Source: a virus | DNA length: 8,976 nt | Virus genome (UHGV): UHGV-1999812 | Reading direction: 5' to 3' (one strand) | Shown here: in pieces, positions 1 to 7,965 of the stretch | Numbering within the stretch: the stretch's first letter is position 1 | How the letters are laid out: every line of letters begins with the position of its first letter | The notes under the pieces: model-generated | The model's input: only the letters and a program-made list of their open reading frames with translations | Databases searched by the model: none | What the model was told of the DNA's origin: nothing | Translations under genes and position numbers: made by a program

Positions 1-1011
1 CTTCTTTCTGGTGGCATTGACCCAAAAGAGCACAGAGAGAAACAGCGCCTTAGTGAAGTGATGAAGAGAGAGAACACCTTCAGGCATGTAGCTACGCTCT
101 GGTTTGAACTTAAAAAAGGGCAAGGACTCGCAGAAGATACACTACGCGATATATGGCGTTCGCTGGAGCGTAATGTATTCCCGTCAGTCGGTAACAGGCC
201 AATAGCAGACCTGATAGCAAGCAATTTCATCGAAGCATTAAAACCATTAGCCGCCCAGGGGAAATTAGATACCGTCAGAAGGACAGCACAGCGAATCAAT
301 GAGGTCATGTATTACGCCGTTAATACCGGAATGATTGCCGCGAATCCGGCATCAGAGATAAGCAAGGCATTTAACGCGCCAAGCGTTAAGAACATGCCAG
401 CAATACGCCCTGAAGAACTCCCCGAATTTATGCAGAAGCTGTCAACGGCACGAGTGGAACGACAAACGCGACTGGTTATTGAGTGGCAGTTACTGACAAT
501 TTGCCGACCAGGTGAAGCAGCTGGCGCGCGCTGGTGTGAGATTGATTTTGAGGCGAAGGAATGGCGCATACCAGAGCACAGACTTAAACAACGCAGGGAA
601 CACGTAATACCACTCTCGAAGCAGGCGTTAGCCATTCTGGATGTCATGAAGCCAATAAGCGGGCATCGTGAGTTTATATTTCCACACAACAGCGACCCGC
701 AGCGCCATATGTGCACACAAACAGCAAACGCAGCAATAAAACGCATGGGTTTTGGTCGGCGGCTGGTTGCTCATGGCTTGCGCTCAATAGCAAGTACCGC
801 ACTTAACGAGCAAGGTTTTGACTCTGACGTAATCGAGGCGGCATTGTCACACATAGACAAAAACGAGGTTCGCCGCGCGTACAACCGCTCAACCTATCTC
901 GAGCAGCGACGCCCGTTAATGGCGTGGTGGGGGAATTTTGTAGAGGCTGCTGCCAGCGGGAGCGTAAGCGCCACGGGTGGCTATCGTGGGTTAAAAATGG
1001 TTAACGGTTAA
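1..1011 (+). CDS. Tyrosine recombinase / integrase, P4-IntA type (5'-partial)
   Basis: Frame 1 is open from base 1 (LLSGGIDPKEHREKQRLSEV precedes the ORF-track Met at 58) to TAA 1009-1011. The translation carries catalytic-domain signatures of tyrosine recombinases: Arg in LTICRPGEA, His-x-x-Arg in LVAHGLRSIAST, and HIDKNEVRRAYNRSTY with the C-terminal Tyr. Roughly 70-100 N-terminal residues lie upstream of the window. Confidence 0.9.
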   Translation, partial: LLSGGIDPKEHREKQRLSEVMKRENTFRHVATLWFELKKGQGLAEDTLRDIWRSLERNVFPSVGNRPIADLIASNFIEALKPLAAQGKLDTVRRTAQRINEVMYYAVNTGMIAANPASEISKAFNAPSVKNMPAIRPEELPEFMQKLSTARVERQTRLVIEWQLLTICRPGEAAGARWCEIDFEAKEWRIPEHRLKQRREHVIPLSKQALAILDVMKPISGHREFIFPHNSDPQRHMCTQTANAAIKRMGFGRRLVAHGLRSIASTALNEQGFDSDVIEAALSHIDKNEVRRAYNRSTYLEQRRPLMAWWGNFVEAAASGSVSATGGYRGLKMVNG

Positions 1012-1015
1012 GGGC

Positions 1016-1912
1016 ATGGCAAACAAAAAAATAAACCTTCCTGAGAGGGATTATTACCCGTTAGACAAGGCAGCCAGAAGGCTTGGGTGTGACGTTGATG
1101 ACTTGATTCACTTCATCGCTACAGGGAAGATGTGTTTTTGGTACCGTCATCACATAGACGAGGCTTTGACATTACATAATTATAAAAACGCATTTAATAG
1201 TGTATCAGCATCAGATTATTATTATGAAAATGATGAAGGCGTATTCATCAGAGCAACCGACATATTAAAACTACTTGAATCTTCATATTTTGGTGAAAAA
1301 ATAACAAACAATGAAGACCAACTAACGGAAAAGGTATTTTTTTATTACGATAGTAGTTATTCCGAAACGGATATTTTTATATGCAATTATCAGAAATATA
1401 AACAAAGAAAAATCAGAACGCAGTTACCACATAAAATCAGGGTTGTGGCTTCAGGGCTTTTACAGGTATTTAATACAAGCATTGACATAGAGAACCTATC
1501 AAATGAAATTACAAATTGCTCTGTGCGCCGCATTGTTATAGCAGATAAAGCAGAAGAACCAGAGATAACAATAAACCTATATGGCAAAACAATAAATATT
1601 AGTGACGTTTTCATCTCAAAAGAAGAGATAAAAATAGTAATGAACGGCGGCAGACAACCAGGAGATATGGTAAAGGATTTTTCAGATAAACACGCCTTGT
1701 CGCATTCGCAGAGCAAGAAAACAACCAATCTTCAGGCCAGAGTTATCAAAAGACTAATCACCGCCATAGCCGGAGAAGAAGAGGCGTCAAACCCACGAAG
1801 GGCGCTTGAAAACGGTCACAGCAAGTTAAGCCGCGCACTAACCAAAGCAGGGGTTGATATCGGTGCCACACCAACATGCATAGGTAAGTGGCTTGCAGAC
1901 GTTGACGACTGA
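1016..1912 (+). CDS. Hypothetical protein with N-terminal AlpA/excisionase-like HTH and AT-rich central domain
   Basis: 298-codon ORF starting 4 nt after the integrase stop. The N-terminus YPLDKAARRLGCDVDDLIHFIATGKM fits the HTH pattern of AlpA/Xis-type regulators. The central ~500 bp (about 1190-1680) is far more AT-rich than the rest of the window, rich in Asn/Lys/Ile/Tyr codons. Followed by a strong terminator. No family recognised for the rest. Confidence 0.6.
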   Translation: MANKKINLPERDYYPLDKAARRLGCDVDDLIHFIATGKMCFWYRHHIDEALTLHNYKNAFNSVSASDYYYENDEGVFIRATDILKLLESSYFGEKITNNEDQLTEKVFFYYDSSYSETDIFICNYQKYKQRKIRTQLPHKIRVVASGLLQVFNTSIDIENLSNEITNCSVRRIVIADKAEEPEITINLYGKTINISDVFISKEEIKIVMNGGRQPGDMVKDFSDKHALSHSQSKKTTNLQARVIKRLITAIAGEEEASNPRRALENGHSKLSRALTKAGVDIGATPTCIGKWLADVDD

Positions 1913-1923
1913 CAGACTTCTGA

Positions 1924-1947
1924 ACATATGACCGCCCGTAATATTAC
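1924..1947 (+). terminator. Rho-independent terminator downstream of the 298-aa ORF
   Basis: Perfect palindrome GCCCGTAAT/ATTACGGGC (1924-1941) immediately followed by TTTTTT (1942-1947), 12 nt after the stop at 1912. Confidence 0.6.
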
Positions 1948-2050
1948 GGGCTTTTTTCGTAATATTCCGCAATGCCAGCTTTTCCCGTGTTTGCATATCC
2001 TTGAACAAGTTTAGGCAAGTTAGCGCCTGAAACAAAAGGAACGCAAAAGT

Positions 2051-2254
2051 ATGAACATTACAGAAAAGAAAATCCTTACAAAACGAGAAGTCGCAAATCT
2101 TCTTCGCCTTAGTACAACAAGCATTGACACAATGGTTAAGGCTGGTGAGTTTATTCCTGGCTTTAAGCGTGGATTACGCCGCGTTGGCTGGTTTGAGGAT
2201 GAGGTGAAATCATGGCTTGAGAAGAAAGTAGAGGAGCGTTATCAGCAGGAATAA
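2051..2254 (+). CDS. alpA: AlpA-family phage regulatory protein (excisionase-like HTH)
   Basis: 67 aa; LTKREVANLLRLSTTSIDTMVKAGEFIPGFKRGLRRVGWFEDEVKSWL matches the AlpA/Vis-like wHTH pattern (helix, GxFP-x-basic, W-x-E-x-E-V/I-x-x-W). AAGGA upstream of ATG 2051. Position downstream of an integrase is typical. Confidence 0.85.
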   Translation: MNITEKKILTKREVANLLRLSTTSIDTMVKAGEFIPGFKRGLRRVGWFEDEVKSWLEKKVEERYQQE

Positions 2255-2784
2255 TAAATTCCCATATGTGAAATATAAAAGCCACCAGCGCAGAAAATAA
2301 AACGCCTCACGTTATGCAAAACGGGTTAACCGTCGTGATGCCTTGCCGCATTCAATTAACGGCAGGTAAAAAATACCCGCAATGCAATAACACTACGGGC
2401 CATCAACGGAATATAAGGAGTTAACCGATGTGTATTGTATACAGTCGTGTGTATATTGCCACAGGTAACAGGCATCCGCGCCAAATACCCGCCAGAGAAA
2501 ATCAGTTGATCGCCAGTATCAAAAATGGCTATGATTCCCGCGCACCTCATAAAACGGGTGTCGGGATTGGAACCCCGCTGGAGATAAAGGCGATACAGAC
2601 GCCGAACGCGTCTTTTTTTGTATCGGCGCACACGCACACCTTATCAATGGTGGGCTGTATGGGGCTGACTTCGGTCAGGCTGGTTTCCTTTATCGCCAGT
2701 AGTTCCAACTCCGTGCAGTCCACCGCCAGCGAGATTGGAACCTCCAGCGGTGGGTATATCCCAACGATAAAGGAGGCTGCCATC

Positions 2785-2961
2785 ATGGCTACTACCCCTG
2801 CCCTCGTACATTCTCAAACTGCCTTTATCTGGCGCTTTATCATCTTTGGCGCGTCAGAATCCCAAATCATCCACGTAACCGCCTGGACGGAACGCGAAGC
2901 GCGTAACCGTTGCCCGTCCGGTTGTGTCGCTGTATTCGCCGCCCGTATTCGTCAGGGGTGA
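2785..2961 (+). CDS. Icd-like small protein (host cell division inhibitor Icd family), copy 1
   Basis: AAGGAGG (2770-2776) sits 8 nt before ATG 2785. The 58-aa product MATTPALVHSQTAFIWRFIIFGASESQIIHVTAWTEREARNR... has the F-x-WRF and T-x-x-EAR motifs I associate with Icd-like proteins, and ordinary codon usage. The in-frame ORF extends upstream to ATG 2428 (also with an AAGGAG RBS), but that extension has four ATA and three AGG/AGA codons and looks low-complexity, so I prefer the short start; the true start is uncertain. Confidence 0.55.
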   Translation: MATTPALVHSQTAFIWRFIIFGASESQIIHVTAWTEREARNRCPSGCVAVFAARIRQG

Positions 2962-3258
2962 GTCATGCTTAAAAACATGTTGATCGCCTCTTCTTTCGGG
3001 CTGTATGATGCCGGAGTCGTCCACATGGCGACCGGGTTTGACAGCCTGAATACTACAGCGGACAGCCGCTTACATTCCGATATGCGGTTTTTTTGTGTCC
3101 GTAAGCCTACCCATACCCGCATTATGGCGGGGCGTAACGGGGGAGCCTTTGCGCTCGCTGGTTCCTGTAGTGCCAGTCTGTCAACCCTGTTACGTCTCGC
3201 CACCATGTTTGACAGCGTAGTAGCGAGACTCCTTAATTTCACTACAGGAGCCTTTCAC

Positions 3259-3429
3259 ATGGCTGTATTCGCACGCCCTTACTTTGTCTGGCGCTTTATG
3301 CAGTGCCACCACAGCAACATCGATGTATTCACCGTTACCGCTGCCACTGAGCACGAAGCACGCGCACAACTTCCGCACACCCATCTGATTTTTGTCACCC
3401 TTATTCGTGAGGGGGTGAGTCATGCGTGA
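3259..3429 (+). CDS. Icd-like small protein, tandem paralogue (copy 2)
   Basis: AGGAG (3246-3250) 8 nt before ATG 3259. The product MAVFARPYFVWRFMQCHHSNIDVFTVTAATEHEARAQLPHTHLIFVTLIREGVSHA aligns with copy 1 over FxWRF ... VTA-TE-EAR ... IR-G. The in-frame ORF extends to ATG 2965; start uncertain. Its stop overlaps the next gene's start (GGGGGTGAGTCATGCGTGA). Confidence 0.5.
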   Translation: MAVFARPYFVWRFMQCHHSNIDVFTVTAATEHEARAQLPHTHLIFVTLIREGVSHA

Positions 3430-3736
3430 TGTGTGTAACACCAGAATACTTGAACAACTGGTTACAACCATAAAAACAGCTGACGCACGGGAAGCGAGAG
3501 CGATGTTTGATGATGCTGACTTCTACGCCCGCAAATTGCTTGAAGGGCTGGCTATCACAGGGCGCTTACTTTCTGGCATGAGTGACAGCATTGACCCTGA
3601 CATGGACGAACTGCGCAGCCTGGGCGATTCCATCGCTGTTACGGCTGAACTTGTGGCCGGATTCAGTGAGGTTGTGGAGGTGTACAACTGGCGTTGTCGT
3701 AACGGAGATATCAGTGCTGATTATCGCCATTCGTGA
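3422..3736 (+). CDS. Hypothetical protein (104 aa)
   Basis: ORF whose ATG is embedded in GGGGGTGAGTCATG and overlaps the upstream stop, suggesting translational coupling. Acidic, helical-looking sequence with ordinary codon usage. No family recognised. Confidence 0.55.
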   Translation: MRDVCNTRILEQLVTTIKTADAREARAMFDDADFYARKLLEGLAITGRLLSGMSDSIDPDMDELRSLGDSIAVTAELVAGFSEVVEVYNWRCRNGDISADYRHS

Positions 3737-3809
3737 TAAGGCAACGACAGGCACCGCTAACCGCATTTATGCAGCAACGGCGTAACTGACCAGAACAAAG
3801 GATAAAAAA

Positions 3810-4109
3810 ATGAACATGAAAAAAACTGGCTTAACTGCCAGCGGCAAGCCTCGCCCTGAATTTAAGCGCGGTGATATTTACCGCGACCAGTACGGCGGCA
3901 CGGTAATGATTAAGGGCGTGGCGGGGCGGTGCGTCACCTACCGCCGTAAAGGCTACGAATATGACTGCGTGATGCCTGTTTATCAGTTTTCCCGTGATTT
4001 TTCTCTGGTGCAGGCGGTACCGCGTAACGTGCCCACCAGCAACGTAAAGGCACTGGCAAAAATACAGAAGATGAAAAAGATGATTAACGCATTCAGGGGC
4101 AAGAAATGA
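3810..4109 (+). CDS. Hypothetical small basic protein (99 aa)
   Basis: AAGGA 6 nt before ATG 3810. Its stop TGA 4107-4109 overlaps ATG 4106 of the helicase gene (ATGA coupling). Lys/Arg-rich. No family recognised. Confidence 0.6.
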   Translation: MNMKKTGLTASGKPRPEFKRGDIYRDQYGGTVMIKGVAGRCVTYRRKGYEYDCVMPVYQFSRDFSLVQAVPRNVPTSNVKALAKIQKMKKMINAFRGKK

Positions 4110-5503
4110 AAAGCGCACCGAACTTAAAAAAACAGCCTTACGACAAAATGACCGAGGTCATTATTTTTGCGGGTAGTGATGCCTGGGCACACGCGAAGCA
4201 GTGGCAGGAGCAGGAGGGCCGACTTGCTGGCGATAATGTGCCACCTGTATGGCTTGGGGAGCAGCAACTGGCAGAACTGGCAGACACGAAAATCATTGAC
4301 GAGGGGCGCTATTGCGTCCGGCTGTACAAAGCAGGCCATATCAGACCATCAAATATTAATGCCATCGCGCAAAAACTGGCAGCGGCAGGCGTACAGGATG
4401 CGAATTATTACCCCGATGGGATGCACAGCCAGAAGCGGGAGAACTGGCGCGAATATCTGGAACGGGAGCGCGGGGAAAAGCAGGAAGAAAAAGGCCACCA
4501 GCGCAAAACAAAGCTACCGATGAGCGTTGGTTCTGCCGGATACGATACACAACTTGATTACGTGGTAAAGGGGATTATTCCGGCAGTATCGCTGTGCAGC
4601 ATATACGGGGCGAGCGGTTCCTATAAATCGTTCCTTGCGGGTTCGTGGGCGTGTCACGTTTCCACGGGCCGCCAGTGGGGAGGCCGCAGGGTGGCGCATG
4701 GCGCTGTTCTCTATGTGGTTGGTGAAGGCGGTATCGGCGTTCCGCGTCGTGTAAAAGCCTGGGAGGTTGTGCACGGTGAGCAGGTGAAAAATCTGTATCT
4801 GGTAAACCGCCCCATCTTTCCGGCTGCCCCGCTTGATGTTGATGAAATGGTTATCGCTGCCCGCCAGGTGGAACGGGAAACGGGTAAACCTGTACGCATG
4901 ATTATTCTGGATACGCTGGCGCGTTGCTTTGGTGGGAATGATGAAAATGATTCCCGTGATATGGGGGCATTTATCCGTGGGTGTGACGAGCTTAAACGGC
5001 GCACAGGGGCCACGGTGCTGGTGGTTCACCATTCCGGCAAGGATGAGACGAAAGGCGCGCGCGGTTCCAGTGCATTTCGTGCTTCGCTGGATGCTGAATA
5101 CCGGATACGCAGGGAGGACGCAGGAAGCGAAGCGCTGGTTATCTCATGTACCAAAATGAAGGACGCGGAGGAACTCAAAGAAGCCGCATATGACTTACGC
5201 GTGGTGGAGCTTTTTACCGACGCTGACGGGGAGTTAATTACGTCGCTGGTGGTGGTGGATAAGCCGCGGCATCCCGTTGAACCTGAGCGCATCGAGGAGG
5301 CAGGGAACAAGACGGAAAACCATACCGCGCTATGGGGGTGCATACGTTCACGCACACAGAACGGCGACAAGTGCACGATCCCGCTGTTACGTGATGACAT
5401 GAAACGGCTTGGGTATGACGTGAAAAACATGCGGCGATGGTTAGCAAAACTGGAGAAAGACGACGTTATCTATATCGACGGTGATGATGTAGGCCCACTG
5501 TAA
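4106..5503 (+). CDS. RepA/DnaB-like P-loop replicative helicase (RecA-fold ATPase) with N-terminal domain of unknown function
   Basis: 465 aa. Walker A-like SIYGASGSYKSFLA, Walker B-like VRMIILDTLARCFGG (hhhhD), and VLVVHHSGKDETKGARGSSAF resembling the sensor/arginine-finger region of RepA-type helicases. Followed immediately by an iteron cluster. Confidence 0.85.
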   Translation: MKSAPNLKKQPYDKMTEVIIFAGSDAWAHAKQWQEQEGRLAGDNVPPVWLGEQQLAELADTKIIDEGRYCVRLYKAGHIRPSNINAIAQKLAAAGVQDANYYPDGMHSQKRENWREYLERERGEKQEEKGHQRKTKLPMSVGSAGYDTQLDYVVKGIIPAVSLCSIYGASGSYKSFLAGSWACHVSTGRQWGGRRVAHGAVLYVVGEGGIGVPRRVKAWEVVHGEQVKNLYLVNRPIFPAAPLDVDEMVIAARQVERETGKPVRMIILDTLARCFGGNDENDSRDMGAFIRGCDELKRRTGATVLVVHHSGKDETKGARGSSAFRASLDAEYRIRREDAGSEALVISCTKMKDAEELKEAAYDLRVVELFTDADGELITSLVVVDKPRHPVEPERIEEAGNKTENHTALWGCIRSRTQNGDKCTIPLLRDDMKRLGYDVKNMRRWLAKLEKDDVIYIDGDDVGPL

Positions 5504-5703
5504 AAAAGTGAGTAGAAAAGTGAGTAATGGTGAGATTTTTACAAAATATTAACACGATTACTCACTTTCTCACCTGTATATAGGCAAAAAAGTGAGTAGT
5601 AAAAAATCACATATAAAACACGCACATAGAAAACCCGAAAATCACAGGTGAGACGAAGTGAGCGATTCCAAAAAGTGAGTAAAAAAGTGAGTAGTGGTGA
5701 GTA
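5504..5703. repeat. Iteron-like direct repeats (GTGAGTA core), putative replication origin
   Basis: At least six direct copies of (A)AAAGTGAGTA(G) at 5504-5514, 5516-5526, 5589-5600, 5670-5681, 5682-5693 and 5697-5703; degenerate GGTGAGA at 5529-5535 and 5647-5653; one inverted copy TTACTCACTTT at 5558-5568. AT-rich tracts flank it (5535-5556, 5747-5777). No long ORF with a ribosome-binding site. Confidence 0.6.
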
Positions 5704-5942
5704 AACAGCAAAAAACACAGAGCAGAGCAGCACGAAAACACAGAAAATCACTTTATTTTTATTTAAGTGTTTTGCTCATGAACGAAGGGCCACAACACGG
5801 CAGAAAGACACGCGAAAGCCCCCTGGCTGATAAGTGCATTCATGAGCACAGCAGCAACAAACTTTACCACGCTGACAGAGCGGGAGATTGCAGAAGCGGA
5901 ACAGGTAACAACCATCAACGTTAAAACCGGAGAGGTGGAATC

Positions 5943-6353
5943 ATGACAGCGCAGATAGCAGCTTACGGGCGACTGATTGACGACCCGCAGACAAAACAGA
6001 CCAGTAAGGGCACACCGATGACGCTGGCACGTATGGCGGTATCGCTGCCATGCAGTCAGGCACAGGACGGACAGGCGACGTTATGGCTATCAGTCCTGGC
6101 ATTTTGTAAGCAGGCCGACCAACTGGCAGGACATGAGAAAGGCAACGTAATCAGCGTATCCGGTGTGATGCAGGTCAGTCAGTGGACCGGACAGAACGGG
6201 GAAACGCGGCAGGGTTATCAGGTCATTGCAGACAGCGTAATCAGTGCGAAAACGGCGCGACCAGGTGGCAACAGACGCAGGACCACAGGCACACAGGGTA
6301 ATCAGCCACCAGCGGGAGGCGATGACCCTTACGGTGACAATATTCCGTTCTGA
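5943..6353 (+). CDS. ssb: Single-stranded DNA-binding protein (SSB family)
   Basis: 136 aa. The N-terminal two-thirds align by eye with E. coli SSB (WLSVLAFCKQADQLAGHEKGNVISVSGVMQVSQWTGQNGETRQGYQVIADSV vs [52 protein letters not shown]). Gly/Gln-rich linker and acidic tail DDPYGDNIPF ending in the hallmark IPF. GGAGAGGTGG RBS before ATG 5943. Confidence 0.85.
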   Translation: MTAQIAAYGRLIDDPQTKQTSKGTPMTLARMAVSLPCSQAQDGQATLWLSVLAFCKQADQLAGHEKGNVISVSGVMQVSQWTGQNGETRQGYQVIADSVISAKTARPGGNRRRTTGTQGNQPPAGGDDPYGDNIPF

Positions 6354-6363
6354 GGGGTGAACG

Positions 6364-6633
6364 ATGGTACATGACAGCATAGCGGAAGAACTGGAGGCGA
6401 AGGGCTTTTACCGGAGAGCGGCGGCGCGATGGGCTGAAGTGATGATGCTGGTGGAGACTGACAGGGAACGCGAACGGGTGGCAATGCGCAGGGCAGAGTG
6501 TTACGGGAAGACGCAGAGGCCACCGGAGCAACCGGATGATTTAGGCGGCCTGAAACGGGCGATTAAACGCACTGAAAAAGAAATGGGGATAGACGGGAGA
6601 GGCAAAAAAATCTGGCGTAGCTACCAGAAGTAA
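6364..6633 (+). CDS. PerC-family transcriptional activator
   Basis: 89 aa. N-terminal DSIAEELEAKGFYRRAAARWAEVMMLVETDRERERVAMRRAECYGK matches the conserved PerC core (E-x-K-G-x-YRRAA-x-RW-x-EV) as I recall it. ATG is 10 nt after the ssb stop. Confidence 0.75.
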   Translation: MVHDSIAEELEAKGFYRRAAARWAEVMMLVETDRERERVAMRRAECYGKTQRPPEQPDDLGGLKRAIKRTEKEMGIDGRGKKIWRSYQK

Positions 6634-6746
6634 GCACAGAGCCGGAACAGTCGGTTAGCCTTTCTGATTGTGTGCGTGTATATCGTTTTATTGCGACGTT
6701 AAATTAAACTGGTAGGACCAGATACACCAACGCAAGAGGCTACCGG

Positions 6747-7154
6747 ATGAACGAGCAAACCCATCACGTACCAAAAGACATCGAGCGGCTTAAATTCATC
6801 GACGCCATAGACAACGGAGATAAACCAGGTGATGCATGGTGTGATTCGCTTGCTGATATCGTGTCGCATTCAGTAGCGGAGCTTACCCGTAATGGCATGG
6901 AGGAGGCAGACGCTTTCAGAATCGCAAAGCGGGTTGTCGCTGCAATCGCCTTCTATGCTGGTGGGCGAAGTCTTTACCTTCCAACAGGCAGATCACTTTT
7001 CGCAGCATTGCGCGAATACGAGATTTACTACAGGTGGGATAACGGCGAAAAATTGCAGGTATTACGCAAAGAGTACGCAATATCCGAAACCCATATTTAC
7101 GACATCATACGACGACTGAGAAAGAAGCACGCCAATAAAATCACGCAAGACTAA
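6747..7154 (+). CDS. Mor-family transcriptional activator
   Basis: 135 aa. The C-terminal half FRIAKRVVAAIAFYAGGRSLYLPTGRSLFAALREYEIYYRWDNGEKLQVLRKEYAISETHIYDIIRRLRKK aligns with phage Mu Mor (EIVVAICKHLGGGQVYIPRGQALDSLIRDLRIWNDFNGRNVSELTTRYGVTFNTVYKAIRRMRR): GG-x-YIP-x-G, R-x-x-I, F-x-G-x-N, Y-x-I-RR-x-R. AGAGG RBS 7 nt before ATG. Confidence 0.8.
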   Translation: MNEQTHHVPKDIERLKFIDAIDNGDKPGDAWCDSLADIVSHSVAELTRNGMEEADAFRIAKRVVAAIAFYAGGRSLYLPTGRSLFAALREYEIYYRWDNGEKLQVLRKEYAISETHIYDIIRRLRKKHANKITQD

Positions 7155-7289
7155 CCACAGATACCAGCAGCAACCGTTATATTTGCGCCACTATCGCAAA
7201 AAATCCCCTTTCAGGGCATCACGGACGCCACAAAACACCAAAACGCATCAGAGAGCGAATCAGGCGCTTTAATGATGATTTGTTTTTTT

Positions 7290-7358
7290 GTGAAAGAAGG
7301 TGAAAGAAGGTGATTTTTGTGAAATTAAGCGAAATCACGTGAAATCAGGTGAAATAAT
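7290..7358. repeat. Seven 10-bp-phased GTGAAA direct repeats (protein-binding array or curved DNA)
   Basis: gTGAAAgaag (7290-7299), gTGAAAgaag (7300-7309), gTGAtttttg, tGAAAttaag, cGAAAtcac, gtGAAAtcag, gtGAAAtaat: the GAAA cores fall at 7292, 7302, (7312), 7321, 7331, 7341, 7351, one helical turn apart. Contains the palindrome TCACGTGA (7335-7342). Lies between the Mor-like gene and the RNA array. Confidence 0.6.
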
Positions 7359-7395
7359 GATACCCGTTCATCTGGTGCTACCAGACGAAACAGAC

Positions 7396-7424
7396 TTTAC
7401 CCGCGCATAATGCATGATTACTAT
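7396..7424 (+). promoter_or_regulatory. Putative weak sigma-70-like promoter upstream of the tRNA-like RNA array
   Basis: TTTACC (7396-7401), 17-nt spacer, TACTAT (7419-7424); predicted start near 7431, where the first RNA unit begins. Each hexamer matches consensus at only 4 of 6 positions. Confidence 0.2.
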
Positions 7425-7436
7425 TTTGCCTGGCTG

Positions 7437-7517
7437 TATGGTGTACTCTTAATCGGTAAAGCGGCATAAACCCTAACGGGCCATATGTTTATGTGGGTTC
7501 GACCCCCGCCACCAACA
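7437..7517 (+). ncRNA. tRNA-like structured RNA, unit 1 of 3
   Basis: T-arm GTGGG (7493-7497) / loop TTCGACC / CCCGC (7505-7509), with a U·G at the second pair; acceptor-like 3' strand CACCAAC (7510-7516) then unpaired A; D-arm-like TCTT / AATCGGTA / AAGC. The 5' acceptor strand is degenerate (5 of 7 pairs). No encoded CCA. Confidence 0.4.
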
Positions 7518-7540
7518 GCCAACTACCTTATCGCTTTTTT

Positions 7541-7631
7541 GCTGGTGTACTCTTAATCGGTAAAGCGGCACCCGCTTGTATAGCTTCCAGAAAGCGGGAT
7601 GTTTATGTGGGTTCGACCCCCACCACCAGCA
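7541..7631 (+). ncRNA. tRNA-like structured RNA, unit 2 of 3
   Basis: Acceptor-like helix GCTGGTG (7541-7547) with CACCAGC (7624-7630) and unpaired A7631; T-arm GTGGG (7607-7611) / TTCGACC / CCCAC (7619-7623); central 7-bp hairpin CCCGCTT (7571-7577) / AAGCGGG (7592-7598) with a 14-nt loop in the anticodon-arm position. Confidence 0.45.
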
Positions 7632-7654
7632 GCCAACAACCTCATCGCTTTTTT

Positions 7655-7736
7655 GCTGGTGTACGCTCAACGGGTAGAGTCGGTGCCAGCCTGTACAGGC
7701 TGATCATGTATGCGGGTTCGACCCCCGCCACCAGCA
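7655..7736 (+). ncRNA. tRNA-like structured RNA, unit 3 of 3
   Basis: Acceptor GCTGGTG (7655-7661) / CACCAGC (7729-7735) with unpaired A7736; D-arm GCTC (7665-7668) / AACGGGTA / GAGT (7677-7680); central hairpin CAGCC (7687-7691) / TGTACA / GGCTG (7698-7702); T-arm GCGGG (7712-7716) / TTCGACC / CCCGC (7724-7728). Non-canonical for a tRNA: 3-nt linker after the acceptor strand, 6-nt central loop, no CCA. Confidence 0.45.
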
Positions 7737-7965
7737 CGCCAAAAGCACAATTGCGCCATTTCTAAACCCACTTTAAAGCCACATAAAAACGGCTTTCGTA
7801 TCCCGTTTTATTGAGCACTCACGAAAAATGTGTACATACGCGTGTACATATACAAATTAACCCAACCCAAAGAACCGCATAATAAAAGCAATTAACGCAC
7901 ATACTAAACATTCAGATTCAATATTGAGTAACTCGTAACACTAATTCTTACTTTTCAGCCTTCAC

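Follow-up and report, generated by a model that had tools for sequence, protein, structure and literature searches.

A probable iteron-type replication origin 3' of the RepA-type helicase gene in an Escherichia coli PICI-type satellite beside dinD

The stretch of DNA analysed here (the window, 8976 bp) carries an E. coli PICI-type phage satellite with the gene order int, alpA, DUF4222, RepA-type helicase, gap, ssb and perC (Pfam and RefSeq annotation). The main ORFs all lie on the plus strand, and the features of the island are the following:

58-1011, plus strand: tyrosine integrase, cut at the window start (Pfam)
2051-2254, plus strand: AlpA (Pfam)
between AlpA and the 104-aa ORF: Icd/Ash-like remnants (RefSeq annotation)
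3422-3736: 104-aa ORF
3810-4109, plus strand: DUF4222 protein, 99 aa (Pfam match), its stop overlapping the Rep start (ATGA)
4106-5503, plus strand: AAA_25 'RepA family' helicase of 465 aa, called Rep below (Pfam AAA_25, 1.8e-43)
5504-5841: gap
5706-5946, plus strand: frameshifted remnant of a conserved 83-aa gene, phrog_1231 (tblastn and DNA alignment to the related loci L002, L003 and L004; PHROG match)
5943-6353, plus strand: island SSB (Pfam SSB, 2.5e-14)
6364-6633: PerC
6747-7154: Mor

As in other PICIs, int stands at the left end, alpA comes next, the genes run rightward and genes for lysis or tails are absent; the full element is visible in a second copy of the island, in STEC2018-607 (locus L001). 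The right end in the window (~7745) adjoins the core gene dinD, whereas the second copy sits between ileX (tRNA-Ile) and nfeF. When aligned (1-7745 vs 3522-11266 of L001), the two copies share 99% identity over 1715-7744 and 97.6% over 1-1150, the part in between being divergent, and the different chromosomal site in STEC2018-607 therefore points to recent movement of the island. The L001 copy is flanked by a 24-nt direct repeat, AAAAAGGCATACAAAAAGGCATAC.

Several regions of the island away from the gap have features of their own. Nowhere else in the window is the DNA as A+T-rich or as unstable as in the 298-aa ORF after int (1016-1912); Pfam and PHROG gave no match for this ORF, its middle (~1150-1715) has no counterpart in the otherwise 97-99% identical L001, and the region may be a variable slot for accessory or defence cargo. 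Positions 2542-3207 hold an Rfam isrK sRNA (2542-2618) and two C4-type antisense RNAs (2643-2730 and 3120-3207), all above the gathering score. The long ORFs over this region (177 aa and 154 aa) are probably spurious, RefSeq has Ash/Icd-like remnants there, and the region resembles a P1/P4-style RNA immunity module that has been duplicated within a PICI. Three tandem units of ~113 nt make up the island's right end (7430-7745), each ending in a tRNA-like T-arm/acceptor, GGTTCGACCCC(G/A)CCACCA. PGAP names two of these units 'tRNA-OTHER' and 'tRNA-Tyr' in L001; in the window, neither ARAGORN nor Rfam (gathering threshold) made a tRNA-like call for them.

Within the gap, a repeat array begins at the rep stop codon itself (5501-5503) and is built as follows:

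5503-5534, plus strand: left iteron set, two exact AAAAGTGAGTA and a degenerate GGTGAGA, core spacing 12 and 10 bp; position kept in relatives
5535-5558: A+T-rich spacer (83% A+T), a candidate unwinding element between convergent iterons
5559-5573, minus strand: inverted iterons, an exact AAAGTGAGTA and a degenerate GGTGAGA
5575-5582: TATA-like element TGTATATA, between the inverted iteron and the next direct one; conserved in relatives
5586-5598, plus strand: middle direct iteron AAAAAAGTGAGTA; position kept in relatives
5599 to about 5645 (also given to 5647): A-rich spacer, 67% A+T, poorly conserved in sequence
5646-5703, plus strand: right iteron set, direct cores at 5648, 5658, 5675, 5687 and 5697, with exact AAGTGAGTA starting at 5673 and 5685

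The initial annotation had reported an array of repeats here, and the counts bear this out. Positions 5504-5703 contain 11 GTGAG cores, six of which are exact copies of AAGTGAGTA, five direct (5506, 5518, 5590, 5673 and 5685) and one inverted (5559-5567); a search of the whole window placed all six inside 5506-5693, the exact 9-mer being absent from the rest of the 8976 bp. For comparison, AAGTGAGTA with up to one mismatch is expected by chance 1.5 times per whole window. The other five copies are degenerate (5530, 5569 on the minus strand, 5648, 5658 and 5697). Nearly half of the GTGAG pentamers of the window (11 of 24) sit in 5508-5701, and a 32-nt composite block (5503-5534) is repeated at 5670-5701 with 94% identity. 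When 5504-5703 was shuffled 2000 times with dinucleotides kept, and within this interval only as a control for local A-richness, no shuffle contained a 7-mer with seven copies or a 9-mer with six. Within each iteron set the cores are spaced 10-12 bp apart, about one helical turn. The array is also easily melted by calculation: 5496-5696 (200 bp) is the third least stable stretch of the window, and the 20-bp stretch 5532-5552 is one of its five least stable 20-mers.

Two details of the first description had to be changed. A+T-rich tracts do accompany the repeats, but they lie between the iteron sets, not outside them. The interval initially proposed, 5504-5780, starts correctly, but the non-coding origin would end at ~5705 and the remaining ~75 bp on the right do not belong to it, because 5706-5841 aligns to the decayed 83-aa gene. 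This segment, including the AT tract at 5746-5766, is the 5' part of a gene that relatives have in intact form; here the reading frame survives only in the final 34 codons (5842-5946), which overlap the ssb start, and RefSeq annotates the same gene as a pseudogene in the near-identical L001 island. Searches of the gap for other signals were negative: no DnaA box (TTATNCACA) was found at up to one mismatch in 5504-5705, Rfam and ARAGORN found no RNA family and no tRNA in the gap, and a promoter and terminator scan of 5300-6100 gave nothing above shuffle expectation. Conservation was also looked for, and not found, in relatives for the repeated AAAATCAC(A) words of the gap.

We compared the array across ~100 related loci, comprising 13 annotated E. 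coli loci (two published PICIs among them), 80 from Enterobacterales at one genome per species, 8 from an exact-protein look-up and 1 RepA-type plasmid record. In nearly all of them the repeat array begins a few bases past the helicase stop codon (up to ~20 in a few loci); fewer than four core copies were present in about a dozen loci, and L031 had zero. Representative loci of every iteron class, from many genera, share an identical order of elements: a left direct set, a spacer, one or two inverted copies, a TATA-like box, one direct copy, an A-rich spacer of 45-55 bp and a right direct set. The word YRTATAY occurs at +46 to +84 past the stop codon in 84 of 98 loci and in all iteron classes (background 0.055 per 100 nt), and this TATA-like box could be a nucleation point for melting or a -10-like element. 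In the E. coli alignment AAAGTG.G is invariant while the spacers diverge freely. The iteron core is uniform within an element, the inverted copy included, and variable between elements (GTGAGTA, GTGAGG(A), GTGGGGA as in L005, GTGGGGG, and GTGCGGC as in L044), so that the core changes in concert, as would be expected if a single sequence-specific protein bound all the sites. Loss of conservation in homologous islands would have spoken against an origin; instead, the layout is kept position for position, and the reading as an origin is strongly supported by the comparison. Of 5426 complete E. coli genomes, at least 616 carry the stretch between the helicase 3' end and ssb (coverage 80% or higher), in up to six places per genome. 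One locus, L096 (2874-3040), has the left iteron set alone (three GTGGGG copies), the rest being replaced by a different gene of 247 aa.

This architecture also matches what has been described for Gram-negative PICIs, in which the origin lies immediately 3' of the initiator gene and two iteron sets flank A+T-rich DNA (Fillol-Salom et al. 2018, PMC6092414). In EcCICFT073, a rep-ori cassette maintains a temperature-sensitive plasmid, and both rep and ori are needed (PMC6092414). In the window, the iteron sets 5503-5534 and 5646-5703 stand 3' of rep around A+T-rich tracts, and Rep is of a described allele, that of EcCI042 Pri-Rep, one of four named in Fillol-Salom et al. 2018 (PMC6092414). Since both the layout and the class of Rep allele were already described, the island of the window joins a known kind, and the origin reading is most likely sound but ordinary for such islands. 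EcCI042, like other E. coli PICIs with the RepA-type Pri-Rep allele, has the same genes in the same order (int, alpA, icd-like, small ORFs, DUF4222, RepA-family helicase, a gap of ~200 bp, in some cases p83, then SSB and PerC); its origin aligns position for position with that of the window, and its Pri-Rep is of the same family, architecture and allele class. It differs in its core (GTGAGG vs GTGAGTA in the window) and in the recognition-helix segment of Rep (EMKNFRRWLYKL vs DVKNMRRWLAKL in the window), and it lies in tqsA, whereas the island of the window sits by dinD, lacks the capsid/decoration/terS module and has Mor. EcCICFT073, located at roxA-phoQ, shares the organisation of the island, with DUF4222 upstream, p83-SSB-PerC downstream and iterons in the gap after rep, and the N-terminal 125 aa of its Rep are 69% identical to ours; however, its helicase core is D5/SF3-type (Pfam D5_N, DUF5906, Pox_D5) and not RecA-like AAA_25, and its iterons are of the CTGTCTACC / GGTAGA type.

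The same array could be read as a set of operators for the Rep winged helix or for AlpA, PerC or Mor, controlling read-through or expression of ssb-perC, in place of an origin. No terminator or promoter was found between the helicase gene and ssb, so the array would lie inside a transcription unit; in relatives its last iteron, GTGAGGAG, also provides the 83-aa gene with its Shine-Dalgarno region, and plasmid iteron arrays are known to act in autoregulation as well. However, the genes downstream vary between relatives (p83-SSB, ProQ or none) while the array is unchanged, and the array tracks a residue of the helicase (see below) and not DUF4222 or SSB. Convergent iterons around A+T-rich DNA 3' of an initiator are moreover the very layout needed for EcCICFT073 replication, and we regard control of ssb-perC in place of replication as very improbable, although the array may have a regulatory side role.

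A packaging site (pac or cosB-like) read by a small terminase is, in our judgement, scarcely credible. Small terminase subunits often bind repeated boxes through winged-helix domains, and in many relatives the gene order of the window continues into genes for capsid, decoration and small terminase, with TerS and capsid proteins encoded within a few kb of the array on its downstream side. But the island of the window keeps six perfect iterons with neither terS nor capsid, the iteron class goes with the helicase residue, and every relative has the array directly next to the helicase gene irrespective of the packaging module that comes after; the missing terminase and the tie to the helicase are what make this reading unlikely.

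The origin reading raises the question of which protein would recognise the iterons, and the features of Rep that bear on it are:

4106-4480, plus strand: Rep N-terminal domain, aa 1-125, found as two alleles, neither following the iteron class
5312-5500, plus strand: predicted C-terminal winged-helix domain of Rep, aa 403-465, with a predicted recognition helix at aa 442-451 (5429-5458)
5426-5428, plus strand: codon of Asn441, the candidate specificity residue for core base 4 (the A of GTGAG)

By sequence, Rep is a RepA-type SF4 helicase with a RecA-like core: beyond the Pfam AAA_25 match, the family profile matches RSF1010 RepA (PDB 1g8y) at 2e-5, and the Walker-A motif reads GSGKS (Lys174). 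The model of full-length Rep was poor (mean pLDDT 59, Foldseek giving meaningless matches of low TM) and the C-terminal domain was therefore modelled alone; this model supported a winged-helix fold, all Foldseek E-values being above 1e-3. The initial annotation had seen no initiator and had named the 99-aa or 104-aa protein, the N-terminal domain of the helicase or a helper as possible substitutes. The winged-helix domain at the C-terminal end of Rep now supplies a candidate, as follows.

Position 441 directly follows a conserved Lys and lies at the helix 3 N-cap, and it tracks the iteron core. Among loci with at least four core copies, across genera, Lys-Asn goes with GTGAG in 32 of 32, Lys-His with GTGGGGA in 12 of 12, Lys-Ser with GTGCGGC in 8 of 8 and Lys-Lys with GTGGGGG in 25 of 25, these being counts of loci and not of independent evolutionary switches. 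Gly at 441 accompanies GTGCG, and three forecasts set beforehand all held. In an alignment of 15 E. coli helicases with 229 variable columns, column 441 alone (Asn vs His) separates GTGAG from GTGGG. When L097 and L100 are set against L007, the last 62 residues are identical but for N441H, and the origins are GTGAGG vs GTGGGGA. One exception was found, L098 (2601-2860), which has Asn441 and yet a mixed origin (GTGAGG, GTGGGGA and (A/G)TGGGTA) that may be recombinant or in transition. The correspondence agrees with the usual preferences between side chains and bases, Asn pairing with adenine and His or Lys with guanine.

Covariation of this kind need not mean contact. The winged-helix codons lie 0-190 bp from the iterons, so that recombination of the whole cassette could produce it with no contact at all, and residues 3, 5 and 8 at the N-terminus of the 83-aa protein also separate the iteron classes. 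We attribute the latter to physical linkage, because the 83-aa gene directly adjoins the right iteron set and has decayed or is missing in several loci (the window, L010, L094 and L096); this means that the linkage effect is real. The discriminating column 441, however, is 24 codons before the stop, and the 14 C-terminal columns nearest the origin are non-discriminating. Given this correspondence between residue 441 and the iteron core, initiation is most likely carried out by the helicase itself, binding through its predicted C-terminal winged helix as SaPI Rep does.

Other proteins were considered as specificity factors and rejected. The DUF4222 protein, the 99-aa candidate put forward at first, is a conserved partner of both Rep types, but it has no discriminating column and an identical protein (WP_000770163.1) occurs with GTGAGTA and with GTGGGGA origins; SSB likewise has no column tracking iteron class. 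The N-terminal domain of Rep did not hold up as the iteron reader either, because its alleles do not track the iterons and EcCICFT073 Pri-Rep has the domain in common (L091 5242-5616, 69% identity over aa 1-125, the remainders being unrelated) with different iterons. A common N-terminal module is thus joined to two different helicase/origin-binding cassettes, SF4 and D5/SF3. This domain had no Pfam match and no PDB profile match, its alignment contained no conserved acidic Toprim-like motif, and Pfam found no primase, D5 or Toprim signature in Rep. Pfam applied to the ten main ORFs (the set omits the short ORFs across 2428-3429) found no primase, RepC, RepB or Rep_3-type protein. The initial remark that no primase is evident thus stands, and help with priming from the host or a helper phage remains likely.

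Known replication systems place Rep and its origin further. SaPI Rep has a C-terminal winged helix and 6-12 iterons just downstream of rep, in opposite orientations around an A+T-rich centre, with no separate loader known (PMC9371898). The likeness we propose to SaPI Rep/PriRep is that of a helicase-initiator with a predicted winged helix and iterons after rep, opposed around an A+T-rich centre; SaPI Rep, however, is AAA+ SF3/MCM-like and belongs to Gram-positive elements, whereas the core in the window is RSF1010-RepA-like with a RecA fold, and no sequence homology was detected between the two. By analogy, then, Rep and ori of the window would work like SaPI Rep/ori, outside that protein family. 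The ATPase core is in the family of RSF1010 (IncQ) RepA. RSF1010 has a separate iteron-binding initiator, RepC, and a primase, RepB', whereas in the window the helicase appears fused to a winged helix and a 125-aa N-terminal domain. With the winged helix of archaeal Orc1/Cdc6 the likeness is of fold only (~15% identity), and Orc1/Cdc6 is an AAA+ initiator, not a helicase. In P4, helicase and origin binding are united in one protein, alpha, whose C-terminal domain reads short iterons (ori/crr). P4 is likewise an enterobacterial satellite, and the window has P1/P4-style C4-type antisense RNAs and Icd/Ash-like remnants, but alpha is a primase with an SF3 helicase and TGTTCACC-type iterons, to which the AAGTGAGTA iterons of the window are unrelated. 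Classical iteron plasmids (Rep_3/pi/TrfA) have a dedicated WH1-WH2 initiator and DnaA boxes next to their iterons; no Rep_3-type protein was found among the ten main ORFs of the window, and no DnaA box in 5504-5705.

Altogether, we consider it very probable that 5504-5705 is the replication origin of a PICI-type satellite beside dinD, driven by Rep, and we propose that it fires in four steps. The rightward operon would first be switched on to produce the 465-aa Rep, a step for which EcCICFT073 uses AlpA after a signal from its helper phage. The winged-helix domains of Rep would then bind the 11 GTGAG iterons, with Asn441 reading the adenine at core position 4. Rep bound to the left and inverted iterons, which converge, and to the right array would melt the intervening A+T-rich, TATA-like DNA. 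The RepA-type ring would finally load itself onto the single strands with no separate loader, while the island SSB would coat them. Synthesis would fall to DnaG and Pol III of the host, as no primase or polymerase gene was recognised in the island; searches for further parts of the mechanism found neither a primase nor a DnaA box nor a promoter.

By analogy with the known systems, autonomous replication of the island is plausible. Two complete circular records labelled 'plasmid' are whole PICI-like satellites, L101 (CP018459.1, 16,971 bp) and L102 (NZ_CP148328.1, 10,790 bp), both with int, alpA-like, DUF4222, Rep and capsid genes. L101, from Klebsiella, combines a RepA-type helicase of the Lys-Ser class with a GTGCGGC origin laid out in the same way; the Rep of L102 is D5-type. 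These records suggest episomal copies abundant enough for assembly, and thus give indirect support for an episomal life.

The island of the window may nevertheless be reduced or defective, as suggested by its missing capsid and terS genes and its decayed 83-aa gene. From Rep to ~7745 we found no terS, capsid or other packaging module, only SSB, PerC and Mor, and under the SatelliteFinder scheme the island would score as a 'Type C' PICI only (int, AlpA and replicase). The frameshift in the 83-aa gene fits the same picture, in which the array would be a true origin by descent that is now disused, in a remnant beyond induction, replication and mobilisation. We think this very unlikely: the island retains a full-length Rep and undamaged iterons, the near-identical island at another site in STEC2018-607 points to recent movement, and EcCIMP1 is an example of a PICI that can be mobilised although it has no recognisable packaging genes.

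These results place the island in the E. coli PICI family and identify, from sequence, its probable origin and likely initiator. Virulence and defence genes travel on PICIs, which also interfere with helper phages, and it is the specificity of their replication that decides which satellites coexist or cross-activate. The correspondence between residue 441 and the iteron base provides a handle on replicon specificity or on orthogonal PICI-based vectors. For annotation, the 'helicase RepA family protein' of at least 616 of 5426 complete E. coli genomes could be labelled a satellite replication initiator with an adjacent ori. In the literature searched we found no study of a RepA-type PICI helicase, and the residue/base correspondence and the N-terminal domain shared by unrelated Rep types were the only results that we did not find described there. 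It is possible, although we lean slightly against it, that the RepA-type PICI helicases form an undescribed class of self-loading initiators combining an SF4 ring with a winged helix like that of Orc/Cdc6. A single N-cap residue would largely determine which origin they recognise (Asn reading A, His or Lys reading G, Ser or Gly going with C at position 4), and their N-terminal domain would act as an exchangeable adaptor linking them to a shared partner (such as DUF4222, host primase or a helper factor). If this is true, a single substitution together with a concerted change of the iterons would create a new, non-cross-reacting replicon group among satellites that share a cell.
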